Assembly: GCA_963826525.1 (NCBI GenBank) | Contig: CAWGXH010000004.1 | Span: 64,001-128,000 of the forward strand | Length of the DNA: 64,000 bases | Reading direction: 5' to 3' | Origin: an uncultured Methanomicrobiaceae archaeon | GTDB taxonomy: Archaea; Halobacteriota; Methanomicrobia; Methanomicrobiales; Methanoculleaceae | In this document: piece after piece, positions 52,241-60,679 of the stretch | Layout: each line of letters opens with the position of its first letter | How positions within the stretch are numbered: the stretch's first letter is position 1 | Position numbers and translations under genes: made by a program | Notes under the pieces: model-generated | Told to the model about the DNA's origin: nothing | The model's input: only the letters and a program-made list of their open reading frames with translations | Database searches by the model: none

Positions 52241-53193
52241 CTACCGTGGCTTTGTCCATTCTTCAAACCGGTAATTCTTATACCAGTTGACGAGTCTGCG
52301 AGGGCCTGGTCGATCGAGTATCGGGTCGCCAGCCCAGTTTATTTGCCTGTGAAATATCAGCGATGAGCCTCTGAACCTCTCCGGGTCTTGGATCTACGTG
52401 AACTGGCTCTATGTCTCTCTCGCAGAGATCGGCGATCTTCTTTGCCAGATCAAGGATTGGATATCAGCCCCCGATCCGAAGTTGATGGGCTCCGTAAGTA
52501 TCCCATCATAGTTGAGAAGGATATCGTACGCCCTCACAATATCATGGATATATGTGTAGTCTCTTGTCTGACTCCCGTCGCCGTAAATGATCGGCGGGCT
52601 CCCGTTCAGCACTCTCCGGATGAAGATGGAGATGACCCCGCCGTACCGGAATCTTTCTGGTGCGGCCCATAGATGTTGAACGGCCGGATGACGGTGATGT
52701 TCATCCCGTAGGTGCAGATATACGCGTAGCACATCCGGTCTGCAGCGATTTTGCTTGCGCCATACGGATGCGGTGCGTTTAACGGATGTGCTTCATCCAT
52801 CGGGGAGTACTGGGCTGAGCCATAGACCTCGCTTGTGGAGGCGTGGATCACTTTTTCAACATCATACATCCGGGCCGCCTCAAGCACTTTCTGCGTCCCG
52901 AGCACGTTTGTTTCATAGGTGAGCTTCGGTTCGATAATTGAGCGGTCGACATGAATCTGTGCTGCCAGGTGAACGACAGCATCCACATCCCGCATCAATT
53001 TCTCCAGGAGATCGAAGTTTTTAATATCTCCAGAAATCAGTTTGAAGTTCCGGAATTTGAGCAAGTGCCGGATATAGGTCAGGTTGCCGTTTAAGAAGTT
53101 GTCCAAGCACAGGACGGTATCCCCCCGCTTCGTATACGTGTCACAGAGATGCGACCCGACAAAGCCCGCACCGCCGGTGATCAGTAACTTCAT
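52241..53193 (-). CDS. NDP-sugar epimerase/4,6-dehydratase (SDR), several frameshifts
   Basis: TGGAGFVGSH, AAQIHVDRSI, STSEVYG, PYGASK, GDGSQTRDY and PRPGEV. Confidence 0.9.
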
Positions 53194-54299
53194 TTTGCTC
53201 CTCCATTCACCTGGTTCGAGTACACCTCGGCGATCCTCTCCATTTCTTTGTGGTAGTTATACTCTGCTGAAATCTTGCGCCGGTTATTCTTCCCGATCCG
53301 CTCTCGTTCCTGTGGGTGCTCGCAGAGATAGATAATCTTATCTGCAAGTGCCTGGGGAGAGCGAGTCGGAATGACAAACCCATTTTCGTTCTCTTTCACC
53401 CATGCCGCGTTATCACCGAAGTCCGTAATGATCACGGGCAGGCCGCACGCCATCGCTTCGGCGGTGCTGATGGCGAGGCCCGCATCCGAGAGCGACGTTG
53501 AGGCGTAGATGTCAGCGGCACTGAGAAGATGCGGCAGGTCGGTGTTGTGAACGATACCGGGGAAATCGGTCACCTCATCGAGGCCCATCTTCTTTACGGT
53601 CTCCATGAGACCCTCCCGTAGAGGGCCGCCCCCCACGATCGTAAACCGCGCATCCGGGTACTCCCTGATTACGAGCGGGATGGCCTCGATAAGAGTGCCG
53701 AGATCGTAAATGGGGCGGTGCATCCTGGTATTGATAATCCGCCTTACAGTGCCGCCCTCTTCTGCCAGCTGTTCGCTGTCGTATAGGTCAGGCCTGAACT
53801 TTTCCGTATCCACCCCGTAGTAAATGAGCGAGACTTTCGATGGATGAATCCCCTGATCGAGTACCGTCCGATGTGTGATGCTCCCGTCACAGTGAACATG
53901 ATCTGCAACCCTGAGCGTGTGGCGAATGAGCGGTCCCATTGCACCTTTTTGATCGACCAGAACGTCTGAACCCCACACTGACAGGACGAACGGGTGCCTC
54001 CTTGCGAGCAAACCGATAATGCCGTAATCTGTGACGTAGTGCGCGTGGATGATCTCCGGTTGAATCCTGTCAATCTCCCGGCGGGCCCGGATTGCCCGGT
54101 AGGGGAGCGAATAGAACAATCTCCGACGCACCCGCGATCTGCTTGACTCACGCAGATCGTGCATCACAACCCCTTCGGGATCAGAGTCGTACATCGGGTT
54201 GTCGAACGATACGAAATGGACCTCATCCCCTCTCTTAACAAAGTATTTTGCCATTTTTTCAGAGGTTGGCCCCCATACGGATAGGTAACAGATCTTCAT
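53190..54299 (-). CDS. Glycosyltransferase family 4
   Basis: IHAHY, SVWGSDV, GVDTEKF and SLSDAGLAISTAEAMACGLP. Confidence 0.9.
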   Translation of the reverse strand: MKICYLSVWGPTSEKMAKYFVKRGDEVHFVSFDNPMYDSDPEGVVMHDLRESSRSRVRRRLFYSLPYRAIRARREIDRIQPEIIHAHYVTDYGIIGLLARRHPFVLSVWGSDVLVDQKGAMGPLIRHTLRVADHVHCDGSITHRTVLDQGIHPSKVSLIYYGVDTEKFRPDLYDSEQLAEEGGTVRRIINTRMHRPIYDLGTLIEAIPLVIREYPDARFTIVGGGPLREGLMETVKKMGLDEVTDFPGIVHNTDLPHLLSAADIYASTSLSDAGLAISTAEAMACGLPVIITDFGDNAAWVKENENGFVIPTRSPQALADKIIYLCEHPQERERIGKNNRRKISAEYNYHKEMERIAEVYSNQVNGGAK

Positions 54300-54458
54300 C
54301 CCGCCCCCTCTCCCGTATTATGACATATAGTCGTTGCGGTGATGTGTCAGGGATGCCCAGACTCAGTAGTTCGCTAATTTGAGAGCCGGCATACTCTTTG
54401 CCGAATCAGGAAACCAGCATAAAAACGAAAGATCTATAACAGTTGCAGGCGTCCCCTC

Positions 54459-57400
54459 ATGCCTTTTACCCAAAGGAAGAAAACGACCTGCAGAAAGAAT
54501 AGCGACCTCAAACCGAAAGAATGTTGTGTTCATGTCGTCGCGGCACTGGATCAGCACCTGACGATCCCGATCCAGGGACGGCTCACCCAAACAGACCTGT
54601 TTCAGGCCCTGGGCGGCATGGCCGCGATGAATCAATCCATTCACTCGATCACCGGGTTTTTGGAGCACGTACCCTGTGAGACGTCGTTTCACTACCATCT
54701 GAAGAAACTCAATATGGGCGAGTTAGAGCAGAAGAGCACTGCTATCCTCACCCACTTCGTGCACCACGTCCTGAAGCCCGGGAAGTCGTATCAGTTCGCG
54801 ATCGACTACACCAACGATCCGGTGCGACAAGAAGTTGTATCGGGGATTGCGGGTCAATCCGCCACCCTATCCGTTTGGGGTGTCCCTACTGTGGCATGCG
54901 CTCTTGGTTAACAGGAGGGTGTGAAGCCCACGGGACAACGCGGAGAAGAGCAGAACCCTGATCTGCTCCATCTGCAAGGGAAACGACGCCAGGGAGAAGC
55001 AAACGCTGAATCATCGAAAGGATCGTTATGGTGAACAAGTGAAAACAGGGTGTTACACTTGGGCCAAAATGGCAAGGAATCAGGCTATTCCGTTAGGATC
55101 ACGGAACAGCAAACGGACGAGCGGTTCCCGGTCTAAAGATGGCTCCTACAGCGTCATTGAGTATCCTCGATACAGAACTTGGAAACCCGTATCCGCCCCT
55201 CGGAAGAGGTATGGAGGTCGTGAGGCCGATAAACGGCGGAGACGGAACAGGATGTCCCAAGAAGCGAATGCCTGCCGGTAACAGGCAGGATAGAGGCAGT
55301 TGCCTCGACCTGAAAGGGTGCTGACGTGGGACAGGTGTTTCACAGCAAAGAAGGGAGGTATACCCGTGAAAGTATGTCATTCAACGACGCCGAACGGCGA
55401 GAAGCATACTGACAAGGAACTCGCCCGGCAATGGAACTCCATTGACTGGGAGAAAGTGGGCTCCGATGTTAACGGGCTACAGACCCGGATTGCAAAGGCA
55501 ACGCAAGAAAGAAAATGGAATCTGGTAAAACGACTCAGTTACCTGCTGACACATTCGCATGCGGCAAAATTGCTATGCAGTACGGATTGTCACGCAGAAC
55601 AAGGGAAAACGCACCCCGGGTGTCGACGGCGAACTCTGGACAACCGCATCGGCGAAGATGCGAGCCGCCCTCAGTCTCACCGATAAACAATACCGGGCGC
55701 AGCCACTCCGCCGTGTCTACATCCCGAAACCTGGGAAGACGACGAAACGTCCTATCTCAATCCCGACAATGTACGACCGGGCAATGCAGGCGCTCTACGC
55801 ACTGGCTCTCCAGCCGATAGCAGAGACAACGGCAGACCCCCGCTCGTTTGGGTTTCGGCTCTTCCGGTGTGCGCAGGATGCGTCACGCTATGCATTCACC
55901 TGCCTCATGAGGCAAGGCTCGACACCGTGGATCCTGGAGGGCGACATCAAAGGGTGTTTCGACGCCATCGCCCACGACTGGCTCCGGGAGAATATCCCGA
56001 TGGACCGGTCGGTGATGACCCAATTCCTGAAAGCCGGGTTCGTCTTCGAGACGACGCTCTACCCTACGGACAAAGGCACGCCCCAGGGCGGGATAATCTC
56101 TCCCATCCTTGCCAACATGACGCTTGACGGGATGAGAAGATTCTCGCTGCACGCCTTCCAAAGACGAACGTGCACTTCATCCGCTACGCGGATGATTTCC
56201 TGGTCACGGCTCCGACGAAGGAGATAGCAGAAGAAGCCCGGGATGTCCTCCGGGAGTTCCTCGCAGAACGGGGTCTCGAACTATCCGGGGAGAAGACGGT
56301 GATTACCCATATTGACGACGGGTTCGACTTTCTTGGATACAACTTCCGGAAATACGAAGGAACGCTCCTGGTAAAGCCGTCCCGGAAGTCAGTCAAGGCA
56401 ATCTCGGAAAAGATCAAGGCGATCGTCAAAAAGGCACGAGCCTGGACACAAGACCGCCTGATCATGGCCTTGAACCCGGTTATCCGGGGCTGGTCAAATT
56501 ACCACCGCCACAACGTGGCCAAGGGGACATTCGGGTTTCTTGACCGCTATGTATGGGCAGTTACTTGGAAGTGGGGCAAACACCGACACCCCAATAAAGG
56601 GCACAAATGGATAGCCCGGAGATACTGGCACCCGGAAGGGAACAGAAACTGGGTATTTCGGACAGAAGAGAACACTCTCCTGTTGTTCGAAGACATAACC
56701 ATCCGGAGACACACTATCCCCAGACTGACTGCAAACCCCTATCTCGACAGGAACTACTTCCTTGACAGAAGAGAACGCATGAAGAGACAGACTCCGTGGA
56801 TTCAAACCAAACTTTCTTTCTTCGCTCTGCCGCCCGAAAATCGGGTAGTGGAATGCATGAGCGTACTGCGGTGAAAGCCGCACGGTGCGTTCTTGGAAGG
56901 GGGGAAGGTGGTAACATCTTCCCCCTATTCGACTACTACGGAACGACCTCTGGGGAGAACGAACCCTTTATCATCCGAAGCAAACGCAAGAAATCGACGA
57001 ACGAGTTCTACTCCTACGTCACCCTCTACGTGACCACCAAAGACCGGTAGATGACGCTGGCCGTGTACCCGGTGCGTCAGGGAATCTCAAAGGTCGGCTA
57101 CATCGCCCGGTGCCTTGACCGGATCGCCGAGCTTGGTCTTGTCATCGAAGCACTCTGCCTTGACCGGGAGTTCTACACCCGGAAGGTCTTCGGGTTTCTG
57201 ACCCGGACGCAGGTGCCGTTCATCGTTCCTGTCAGGAAACACGGCAAACGGATGAAAGAACTGCTCCAGGGGACGCAGTCCCGATATGCCGAATACCGGA
57301 TGAAAGCCAAACCACCACTTCTTCTGACTATCGCGGTTGCGGTGAAGTATGCCAAGGGAAAGCGAGGTAAGCATGGCGTCGAAAACCTGGGATACGTCAC

Positions 57401-57731
57401 CGGCAATCTCCAATGGAGCCCACATCGTGTGCACCAGACCTACCGATCCCGGTTCTCGATCGAATCGTCCTACCGGATGCGCAACCAGGTGAAACCAAGG
57501 ACGAGCACGAAGAATCCGGTGATCCGCTATCTCTATGCTATCATCTCTTTCCTTCTGAAGAACGTCTGGACCGCTTTATTGTGGAAGCACTTCTCTCCGG
57601 TGAAACAGGGGCCGAAAACCATCGAAATGCGCGTCTTCCGATTCGACTGCTTCATTGTCATAATCTGGGAAGCGATCCGAGCATCAATGGGGATGGTAAA
57701 AGGAATCCCCGTGCTAAGGCACCCGGTTTAG
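54459..57731 (+). CDS. ISH3 transposase, join(54459..54821,56934..57731), with in-frame TAG at 57048-57050
   Basis: Spliced sequence restores AIDYTNDP|YYG; CLDREF and YRSRFSIESSYR complete the DDE triad. Confidence 0.88.
54822..56933 (+). ncRNA. Group II intron (IIB-like), 2112 nt
   Basis: 5' GTGCGA; domain V GAGCGTACTGCGGTGAAAGCCGCACGGTGCGTTC (56859-56892); domain VI hairpin with bulged A at 56927; 3' end ...ATTCGAC. Confidence 0.93.
55366..56874 (+). CDS. ltrA: Group II intron reverse transcriptase/maturase without an HNH domain (frameshifts near 55575 and 56140)
   Basis: WNSIDW..LQTRIAKA, GKRTPGVDG, RRVYIPK, DIKGCFD, GTPQGG, RYADDF, GFDFLG and LNPVIRGWSNY. Confidence 0.92.
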
Positions 57732-58198
57732 AGAAAGGAGTGTGGAGCGAAGGAGAACCGAAGAAGCGAGGAGGAGAAGTTAGCGAAGTACTGGGACTGG
57801 CGGTTTACCGGGATACATGTCGAAAATGTGCAGCGTGACGTCGGCTGCTGCACCGTCGGCCATTTCATCAAGAGAAGTGCATCATCGGGAGCACCGATGC
57901 CCGTGAAGATCGTCCGGATACCCTCCCCCGTACGGTGGTATTCCGGGGGGTCAGTCTCTGGAAAGAGCGCTTGCATCGTAGAAGGTCCTTTGACACTTCA
58001 ATCCCGCTCGATAGTCATTTGTCGCTAAAGCGGTTGTACTATAAATCTGCCCTGAATTCAGCCTCGATTTGAGGAAGTATCCCGCCGCCGTCCCGGTTTG
58101 CACTCCAGCATATTGATGTTCTGGGTCACTGTTTTCTGATGCCCTTGAAGGCAGATCGCCCTGCCCTGCACCTGACAATACAGTGCCTCCGGGCTCCT

Positions 58199-59421
58199 TT
58201 ATTCGCCGTCAACGCGGGAAGACCTGCCGGATCCCCGGATATTGTTGCTCTTGCTCTCACCGACCAGCATCTCCAGGAAGTCCTTGAGCTTTTTCATCTT
58301 CACCGACCAGTCGAGGTGCTCTTCGGCGTAGCGGCGCATTTCCTGCGGGTGGTTGGGGTTGGCGCCGACCTCCCTTGCGAACGCGAGGACCTGCTCGACA
58401 TCAACGGCACTCTCGTCGGCGGGGAGGTAGCAAATGTAGGGAAAATCGGAGGAAAAGTCAGGATCAGCACATGCAATGATATACGGGATCCCCCGGGCGC
58501 AGTATTCCCGTCCCTTCAACTCGGATGTCTGTGTCAGCCCTTTCCTGTGGATACCAAGGCTCCCGACTGCGACATGGCACTGATCGAATAGGGCATCGAG
58601 GGCCTCGCCGGTCAGAAATCCGTGGAAGACCACACGACCGGTGATGCCGAGGTCGGCGGTAAGTTCCCGGAGGTGAGGCAGTTCCGTGCCGTCGCCGGCT
58701 ATATGGAGAGTGACTTCCGGTTTCCCGTTATAGGTGGCGAGACCTTGAAGGAGCCGGTCGAGCCCGTGCCAGTGGCTGACGCTGGCGACACACAGGAAGC
58801 GGAAGTCTGTCTTCGTTTTGGCGTGGAGCCTGTCTTACGGGGACTGACTTGACCACAAAGCCGTTTCCCAGCGTGAGATGCGGCTTCGCCGGATCTCCGG
58901 CACAGGCGATCTCATATCCGGTGATCTCATCGGTGACACCGATAATTGCATCGGATTGCCGTTTAAGTAATTTTCCAAAGAGTAACTCGCACCAATAACT
59001 GAGAGCGCTGTCATACAGTTTGAATTCATCCAGCTCCTTTGTCTGGTGCTCCGTCACAACTCTGCAGGCTCTCAACTGCTTGAGGTAGTTCTTCGGGAAA
59101 TATAGAGGGAACGGGTTGAGATATCTGCAGGTACAGCACCTCGTCGGAACCCAGAGAATTTACCGTTTCACCGAATATCCTGCTGATCTTACGAGCACGC
59201 TTGATCCGCCCAAGGATATCGTTCACCGGAATCGGATCGGTTGTATAGGTTGTCAGGAAGTTGTATGGGGGGTAGCGGACGCCTTCATCATGGACGATCA
59301 CCAATTCAACATCCAGTCCAAGTCGCCTTAATTCCGATACCTGGCTGAATAATTTCTTATACACCCCCTCGGTGGGGTTTTGCCCCCCGAACATGAAATA
59401 TTTTAGTTTCAACGTATCCAC
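58199..59421 (-). CDS. Glycosyltransferase family 4-like (several frameshifts)
   Basis: GVYKKLFSQ, EHQTKE, WHGLDRL and SELKGREYCARGIP across stitched frames. Confidence 0.82.
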
Positions 59422-59501: not shown

Positions 59502-60679
59502 TTAAATCTCTTCGAACACGTCTCTCCACCGGGCAACCGCGCGTTCAAACGTGAAATTTTCCTCCACAAACCACCTCCCGTTTTCCACAACTCGCTCCAG
59601 ATCCGGGAAGTTCAGCGCCCGGACCACGTTCGCTGCAATGCACCCAGATGTGTTGTTCTCCATAAGAAACCCGGTTCTTCCGTCCGCAATAACATCCGGT
59701 ATCGCTCCGACCGGTGTCGCGAGCACCGGAGTCCCGCAGGCCATCGCCTCAAGCAGGATATTCGGAAGGCCTTCAAAGTGAGACGGTATCACTAGGAGGC
59801 GGATGGCATTCAGGTACCCGGGCAGATCCCGGTTCTCTATCTTCCCCGTCTGCAGGACTCTTTCAGCAACACCTCCCCGCCTGATCGACGATGCGATAGC
59901 GCCGCCGAGGTCCCCATCGCCGATGATGACTGCTCTCTCCCCCGGTCGATCTGCGAGGAGGAGCGGGAGGGCGTCTGCGAACTCGAGGACGCCCTTTTCT
60001 TCAGAAAGCCGCCCAACGTATCCCACCAGAAACTGCCTGTCGCGGAGCGGGGTCATCGGCGCGAAGGTATCGACGTCGACGAAGAGGGCCCCGGAACGTG
60101 CCCTGCCGGTGTACCCAGCAAGGCCGTAGAGCGGGATCGTTCCGGGCTCTCAGGGACGACCCTGCTTGCCAATCTGTAGGTGAACTGTTCGACCGAACGG
60201 AAGAGGGTGACCTTGAGCGGGCTATATCGCTTCCGGTCGCGCTGCACAACCTGGGACGGCCTCCCATCGGTTCTGACGATTGCCTTCCGGCCGAATGCCC
60301 GTACCAGAAGGATCGGGATGAGGGAGAGATCAGAACCAAAGGCAAAGACGACAGGGGAGTTGCCCGTTTGGAGGAGCGAGGAGGAGACCCGAAGCTGATG
60401 AAGAAAATGGTACCCGAGGTTCATGAGGAGTGACTCCTCCACAAGTCGGTCCGGTATCTCTACCACCCGAACGCGGTCGTCCGCATAGTCGATGCCCCCT
60501 TCCCTCGTCGCGACCCAGGTTATCCCGCCCGATAACTGCTTGAGGATCGCGAGGAGTTTCACCGTTGGGTGGAGGGTCTGACCCGCATCCCACCGCCCGG
60601 TGACGAGGACGATCCCGCCCGATACTCCGTGACAATCACCAGTTCCATTACCATCTGCGTCGCACATGATCCCCATCAC
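59502..60679 (-). CDS. Glycosyltransferase family 4 (frameshift near 60130)
   Basis: YVGRLSEEKG, PSHFEGLPNILLEAMACGTP. Confidence 0.87.

Follow-up and report, generated by a model that had tools for sequence, protein, structure and literature searches.

Group II introns that home into the transposase genes of insertion sequences (IS) are already known from RmInt1 in ISRm2011-2. The intron-encoded protein of RmInt1 has no endonuclease domain, its natural homing site lies in an IS transposase gene, with intron-binding site 2 (IBS2) at target positions -13 to -9 and IBS1 ending at -1, and its genomic copies are undergoing inactivation by point mutations (PMC4496777, PMC3035460 and PMC4075523). 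The same features recur at the locus described here, where a group II intron interrupts the transposase of an ISH3-family IS. This locus lies in a stretch of 64,000 nt from an uncultured Methanomicrobiaceae archaeon (GenBank assembly GCA_963826525.1, contig CAWGXH010000004.1, positions 64,001 to 128,000 of the forward strand). We refer to this whole stretch as the window and count positions from its first nucleotide. RmInt1 in ISRm2011-2 is the closest analogue of the window element, and the archaeal, ISH3-hosted member is new here. Taken as a whole the locus is very probably an inactivated copy of a two-layer mobile element, an IIB1 intron in an ISH3 IS, whose insertion site was entered several times independently.

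ISRm2011-2 is an IS630-family element of a bacterium, Sinorhizobium meliloti, whereas the window element is archaeal and its IS belongs to the ISH3 family. RmInt1 is a member of the class D intron lineage and differs in this from the window intron, which is IIB1/CL1-like. Archaeal introns that home into the open reading frames (ORFs) of related introns are reportedly the subject of a 2003 paper by Dai and Zimmerly, going by its title, and such homing differs from homing into ISH3. The IIB1 introns Th.e.I3 (T.el4h) of Thermosynechococcus and EcI5 of E. coli, both with CL1 reverse transcriptases (RTs), share with the window intron a 5-bp exon-binding site 2 (EBS2) and the EBS2a geometry, according to PMC8643678, whereas their hosts and targets are different.

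The original prediction, made from the letters of the window, held archaeal group II introns to be scarce and described mainly from Methanosarcina. This view is dated, as the surveys span the class Methanomicrobia: PMC8919778 gives 28 of 296 archaeal genomes, concentrated in that class, with introns of classes C, D, CL1A and CL1B, and PMC4424553 the lineages CL, D and E. The introns of Methanosarcina and other Methanomicrobia, of the lineages CL, D, E or C, resemble the window family in being archaeal and in having ORF-less derivatives (PMC4424553, PMC8919778). Further, among 401 genomes of the order Methanomicrobiales about 57 gave matches in the range of the intron (hand count), some of them ORF-less, hence the intron family is common in one methanogen order. 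In the literature searched we found no description of a group II intron in an ISH3 element, the one co-occurrence being unrelated; the supplementary tables of PMC8919778 may list copies. With this locus a bacterial behaviour, in which introns home into the transposase genes of IS, is extended to ISH3 elements and to archaea.

The nesting had been proposed with a 2112-nt intron in phase 0, and its boundaries are borne out both by the junctions of empty IS copies and by the colinear ISH3 profile. In the empty copies the two exons adjoin without a gap, at positions 458|2571 of the query, and the intron ends, which fit 5' GUGYG / 3' AY, lie at the same place. By hand count there were 14 such copies, in 10 of the 401 genomes. 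Eight of the 14 junctions were aligned and two of these carry the exact ..GACTACACCAACGATCCG|TACTACGG.. of the window; copies outside the window's genome are continuous over ..GATCCG|TACTACGG.... The occupied form was found, among the 401 genomes, only in the genome of the window. The IS had been presumed to be multicopy, and we found in that genome one full copy plus fragments, with pieces at C4:286522-286919 and C4:1600118-1600475. The same genome has at G000:C3:494633-494890 (L004) an empty relic of a related ISH3 copy, which is 85% identical, is truncated at both ends and has the junction ..GATCCC|TGCTACGG...

The NCBIfam ISH3 profile NF033541 runs colinearly over the gap, with exon 1 matching its positions 3-78 and exon 2 its positions 79-112 and 116-297. 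The three pieces have scores of 43.4, 23.3 and 172.5 bits, which simply added give 239, the cut-off being 225. The intron falls between Pro121 and Tyr122 of the transposase, five residues past the first invariant Asp, and all 12 of the uninterrupted homologues (385-386 aa) are colinear across the junction, reading ..FAIDYTNDP|YYG.. over it. Rejoining of 121 and 266 codons was expected, and it does hold in phase 0 if the stop codon is counted among the 266, but exon 2 contains an in-frame TAG. Residues D116, D198 and E298 are invariant in an alignment of 22 sequences and probably form the DDE triad; a search of the sequences of solved structures with the transposase profile gave no matches at E up to 10. 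The closest named protein is an ISH3 family transposase. Exon 2 is 81% identical to a Methanofollis tationis protein and 66% identical to a protein named ISMbu8; both belong to the same transposase family as the window IS and are uninterrupted ORFs of 385-386 aa, whereas the window copy is split by the intron.

The IS that forms the outer layer is of the ISH3 family and the DDE type, and belongs to Methanomicrobiales-type methanogens. Without the intron it measures about 1318 bp, with inverted repeats of 14-17 bp and a target duplication of 5 bp. Inverted repeats of 17 bp had been pointed out and are indeed present, agreeing at 15 of 17 positions, and the IS ends in other genomes match them with the shared consensus CAGTACTTCGCTAA. 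Perfect 5-bp target duplications flank the relatives L020 (GGACC) and L026 (ACGCA).

For the inner layer, both Rfam group II models match above their gathering scores (Table 1), in agreement with the domains V and VI recognised beforehand, and both were also found in five of five related loci scanned. The fold of domains V and VI comprises 29 pairs, 12 of which show compensatory changes among six family members; the window copy retains all 29, and leaves the A at 56927 unpaired.

Table 1. Positions in the window of the insertion sequence, the intron and their parts.
Feature	Position	Strand	Details
Insertion sequence, ISH3 family	54364-57793		Intron-bearing
Target-site duplication, left	54359..54363	+	AGACT, 4/5 match to right copy GGACT
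Inverted repeat, left	54364..54380	+	CAGTAGTTCGCTAATTT; position 6 is G, C in all other copies examined
Transposase exon 1	54459..54821	+	121 codons, ends ..FAIDYTNDP, holds invariant Asp116; ISH3 profile positions 3-78
Group II intron	54822..56933	+	2112 nt, IIB1-like, 5' GTGCG to 3' ..TTCGAC
Rfam domains I-IV match, RF02012	54863..55016	+	60.3 bits, E 1.4e-10, gathering score 34
EBS2a, spacer and EBS2	55027..55033	+	EBS2a T at 55027, spacer A, EBS2 TGGTG at 55029-55033; pair with exon positions -14 and -13..-9
EBS1	55095..55100	+	AGGATC; pairs with exon positions -6..-1 (GATCCG), 5/6, -1 mismatched
RT/maturase remains	55366..56874	+	Frame 1 55366-55575; extra T 55576; frame 2 55577-56134; G missing; frame 1 from 56137; stop 56872-56874
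Domains V and VI, RF00029	56857..56933	+	47.6 bits, gathering score 40; AGC triad in domain V stem; bulged A 56927
Transposase exon 2	56934..57731	+	265 codons plus stop, starts YYG, holds invariant Asp198 and Glu298
In-frame TAG	57048..57050	+	Codon 160 of joined frame; Gln in 12/12 aligned homologues; CAG in L058
Inverted repeat, right	57777..57793	-	Reverse complement CAGTACTTCGCTAACTT
Target-site duplication, right	57794..57798	+	GGACT

When two public collections were scanned for the pattern of the exon 1/intron junction, 26 loci came up. In seven (L058, L047, L053, L057, L060, L055 and L062), namely six metagenome loci and one contig of a genome collection, the intron follows the ISH3 exon 1 at the identical site; the remaining 19 show no similarity to ISH3. 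The seven are partly redundant, as L057 equals L060, L055 equals L062, and L047, L053 and L058 are 99% alike within the element, which leaves four distinct flanking contexts besides the window and five in all. Further, a search with the 150-aa read-through ORF found six more protein clusters (90% identity) in which ..DYT[NT][DN]P is followed by VRQEVVSGIAG.., the translated start of the intron. All frames are open in L058, with 121 codons in exon 1 and an intron of 2111 nt that encodes the RT/maturase as a single ORF of 502 codons, and the 265 codons of exon 2 have no internal stop. L047 is a contig of 2555 nt in a metagenome-assembled genome labelled Candidatus Omnitrophota; it is 99% identical to the archaeal L058 composite, is most likely mis-binned and gives no evidence for a bacterial host.

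The original prediction had the intron homing to a conserved site of the IS, and the independent contexts of the occupied copies, the transposase tree and the divergence of the two layers agree with it. In the transposase tree (68 rows) five occupied rows are scattered among uninterrupted proteins, and the well-supported branches force at least four changes of occupied or empty state. The rows nearest to the window are empty copies, and an uninterrupted protein (P0015) shares 98% identity with the L058 transposase. The transposase exons of the window and L058 have 77-79% identity and a synonymous divergence (dS) of 1.12 over 386 codons, whereas dS of the RT is 0.31 over 501 codons and the 5' part of the ribozyme is 95.6% identical; the intron as such is 92-97% identical between the window and the other occupied copies. 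Because of the lower RT dS and the higher intron identity, the intron copies are much younger than the IS copies that host them. The dS contrast and the scatter of occupied copies on the tree thus argue for repeated site-specific invasion, presumably by retrohoming, over one ancient insertion.

A single entry is the obvious alternative. The intron would then have spread by composite transposition only, and the empty copies nearby would reflect precise intron loss, for instance by recombination with cDNA of spliced RNA. L053 and L058 fit such a history, being 99% identical composites in different flanks, as expected if the composite moves whole, and all occupied copies fall inside one 29-row clade of the transposase tree. 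Still, we find a single entry quite improbable, since in one and the same pair of copies dS is 0.31 for the RT but 1.12 for the transposase, since intron identity of 92-97% stands beside exon identity of 77-79%, and since the tree forces its changes of state with an empty protein only 2% away from an occupied copy. It had also been suggested that the intron is carried along when the IS moves. Movement of the composite with the intron aboard is possible, as L053 and L058 illustrate, but the data do not separate it from homing into empty copies that had already transposed.

To locate the exon-binding sites we looked for covariation in the aligned 5' parts of 17 family members with 13 different targets. 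In the window EBS2, a loop segment of 5 nt, pairs at all five positions (5/5), and over the 17 copies 169 of 187 EBS1 and EBS2 positions are paired with the copy's own exon. The mean pairing over the 13 distinct targets is 10.08 of 11 for true combinations as compared with 4.76 of 11 for mismatched intron/exon controls. In 16 of the 17 copies the EBS2a nucleotide and exon position -14 are Watson-Crick paired, by three pair types (T-A, A-T and C-G). This is the arrangement described for protein-coding IIB1 and IIB2 introns (PMC8643678), whose EBS2a is found two nucleotides 5' of EBS2, with an A following it, and pairs with IBS2a at position -14. Target positions -14, -13 to -9 and -6 to -1 are thereby defined by covariation and provide a basis for mobility tests or retargeting.

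From these pairings a course of events can be proposed. The intron RNA would recognise the sequence encoding the conserved ..D-Y-T-N-D-P|Y-Y-G.. motif by means of EBS2a, EBS2 and EBS1 and reverse-splice between Pro121 and Tyr122 (retrohoming). As the peptide motif is conserved, the DNA target would be conserved as well in diverged IS copies, hence the several independent entries; the comparative evidence speaks for the same ISH3 site having been invaded several times. In an intact copy the transposase would be made from spliced mRNA only, and unspliced RNA would give a 150-aa product in which two of the three catalytic residues are missing. The structure, its boundaries, its recurrence, the pairings and the decay are observed; that retrohoming is the mechanism and that intact copies need splicing for transposase expression is what we infer. 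In the window both layers have decayed, by the change of Gln160 to TAG, the RT indels and the changes in the repeat, the target duplication and the -1 pair.

The intron was expected to hold one RT ORF, and its RT is instead spread over three frames, seen as separate ORFs at 55300-55686, 55559-56227 and 56170-56874. Comparison with the intact relative L058 shows one T too many in the window RT, at 55576, and one G too few, after 56134. In public runs, contigs from relatives are without this T and have the missing G, and both indels lie outside long homopolymers. A domain scan of the window intron detected RVT_N, RVT_1 and GIIM and no endonuclease domain, and the domains listed for the relatives are the identical set with no others. 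Of the named RTs, those of Methanoculleus (84-85%), Methanoplanus (73%) and Methanosarcina (69%) come closest. Among solved structures the best relative is 6me0_C, with 508 bits over residues 20-474, as compared with 124-136 bits for LtrA and IIC RTs; the entries 6ME0 and 6MEC are Th.e.I3, an IIB1 intron with a CL1 RT (PMC8643678). Because of this relative and the EBS2a geometry we regard the window intron as IIB1/CL1-like, where CL1 follows from similarity and RNA geometry. In plasmid and phage collections the matches were confined to the conserved RT core, at most 14% of the query.

The transposase has suffered too. The TAG of exon 2 could in principle be read as pyrrolysine, and this reading was ruled out, as the genome of the window has no PylS (best score 27 bits against a cut-off of 178); we therefore take the TAG as a stop. 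The left inverted repeat carries a private C-to-G change, the target duplication has one mismatch, and position -1 of the EBS1/IBS1 pairing is mismatched. Judged by its sequence the window copy is a fossil in which both transposase and RT are decayed. It follows that splicing-dependent transposase expression, as predicted for this locus, does not apply to the window copy, because of the transposase TAG together with the frameshifted RT/maturase. For annotation, both genes here are pseudogenes of one nested mobile element.

One may ask whether the copy is still active, with the indels being assembly errors, the TAG read through or miscalled, and the whole a working transposon with a splicing-dependent transposase. 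The ribozyme parts do look intact, EBS2 is paired at 5/5 and EBS1 at 5/6 positions, and the +1 and -1 indels cancel in length; the indels and the TAG, moreover, are read from the assembly. Against this stand four independent kinds of damage (nonsense codon, two indels, left-repeat change and target-duplication mismatch), a genome without PylS in which the TAG replaces a Gln present in 12 of 12 homologues, and the lack of another full IS copy in that genome. We consider an active window copy highly improbable, and continue with the decayed copy.

Concerning expression, the locus was compared with contigs of relatives, mostly 85-95% alike, that come from three RNA libraries and one DNA run; it should be noted that DNA may be present in RNA libraries. 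A 761-nt RNA-library contig covers 54421-55092 and thus the unspliced 5' junction. One contig of low depth (2.1) joins 54820 to 56955, and this is uninformative on splicing because empty IS copies exist as DNA.

By analogy with RmInt1, the intron may mainly be a brake on the IS and not a conditional switch, so that inefficient splicing would silence the transposase to the benefit of the host. RmInt1 in ISRm2011-2 splices at 0.07% in vivo, and the authors of that work suggest that introns of this kind restrict how far other mobile elements spread (PMC3035460). In the present family the occupied copies are a small minority, with 7 read-through as compared with 326 transposase clusters, counts that are not strictly comparable. 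On the other hand, the open transposase exons of L058 suggest recent invasion or continued selection, the two being indistinguishable here. The brake has a real chance of being right, although we lean slightly against it. A more far-reaching idea is that relatives of the L058 type are a working two-tier element of methanogens, in which a retargetable IIB1 intron without endonuclease uses the multicopy ISH3 as safe landing site and vehicle, the transposase is gated by splicing, and the 150-aa read-through product, an N-terminal domain with one of the three catalytic residues, might inhibit transposition. This seems rather unlikely to us; if true, a gene-targeting tool for Methanomicrobiales could be made from the intron, now that its EBS1, EBS2 and EBS2a rules are known.

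Several points weigh against our reading of the locus as a decayed copy of a repeatedly homing intron. The dS contrast comes from one full-length pair, the tree rows with exon 1 only are short, spanning at most 31% of the columns, and uninterrupted assembly proteins were counted as DNA-level empty copies, some of which could derive from RNA libraries. Even L058, used above as the intact reference, may not be fully active, because its EBS1/IBS1 pairs at only 4 of 6 positions and its right repeat tip differs at 2 of the first 3 bases. The EBS3/IBS3 pairing, which involves the first base of the 3' exon, was not found by single-column covariation, where the best column was paired in 6 of 10 copies, and the contigs of the three RNA libraries do not separate splicing from transcription of empty IS copies. 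Finally, assembly error may account for the indels, which like the TAG are known from the assembly alone; no public run contains the window sequence (best word share 0.16), and the assembly consists of 16 contigs and is 87.6% complete with 5.3% contamination.

Introns of the same family were also seen outside the ISH3 site. The closest intron copy in a genome is L010 (G166:C9:1033-3154) of the same genus, 87% identical. It was a candidate for a second occupied ISH3 copy and was rejected: the intron interrupts an IS21 istB-like ATPase gene, and the adjoining fragment of an ISH3 transposase, amid IS debris, starts 177 nt past the junction. Since L010 lies in an istB-like gene, the intron family resides in more than one kind of IS. 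The genome of the window itself has a second intron of the family at G000:C4:575280-577366 (L002:1501-3587), 72% identical and intergenic, between an AAA-ATPase-like gene and another ORF. Its target is different, ..AACTCCTAC|GTTATTC.., with EBS1 pairing at 6/6 and EBS2 at 4/5 positions, and its RT, which changes frame near the N-terminus, stays open over 468 codons. Derivatives without an ORF, about 0.7-0.8 kb long, which keep the 5' 600-700 nt or so of the intron plus roughly the last 100 nt, were found in G228:C249, G204:C302, G225:C12, G231:C1 and G034:C4:91103-91856 (L029, L034, L024); the one in G034 is situated some 200 nt past the right end of an empty ISH3 copy. As for the IS, the approximately 450 nt at G134:C14:284590-285040 consist of only its first 200 nt and last 250 nt, approximately, and look like an internal deletion derivative resembling a miniature inverted-repeat transposable element.

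In the window a group-1 glycosyltransferase gene (53190-54299, minus strand) starts 64 nt away from the IS, which lies upstream of it. Downstream of the IS, at 58199-59421 on the minus strand, follow three consecutive ORFs of 115-144 aa, overlapping or nearly abutting, which may be pieces of one broken gene; a Pfam scan gave no match for those at 58199-58633 and 58728-59075. The minus-strand segment 59088-59168 gave a sub-threshold Rfam match to a trypanosomatid snoRNA model (26 bits, gathering score 45), probably by chance. Further downstream, 59546-59829 shares 286 nt at 74% identity, in opposite strand, with L055:2396-2679, which is the upstream flank of another occupied copy, its counterpart in the window being the downstream region.

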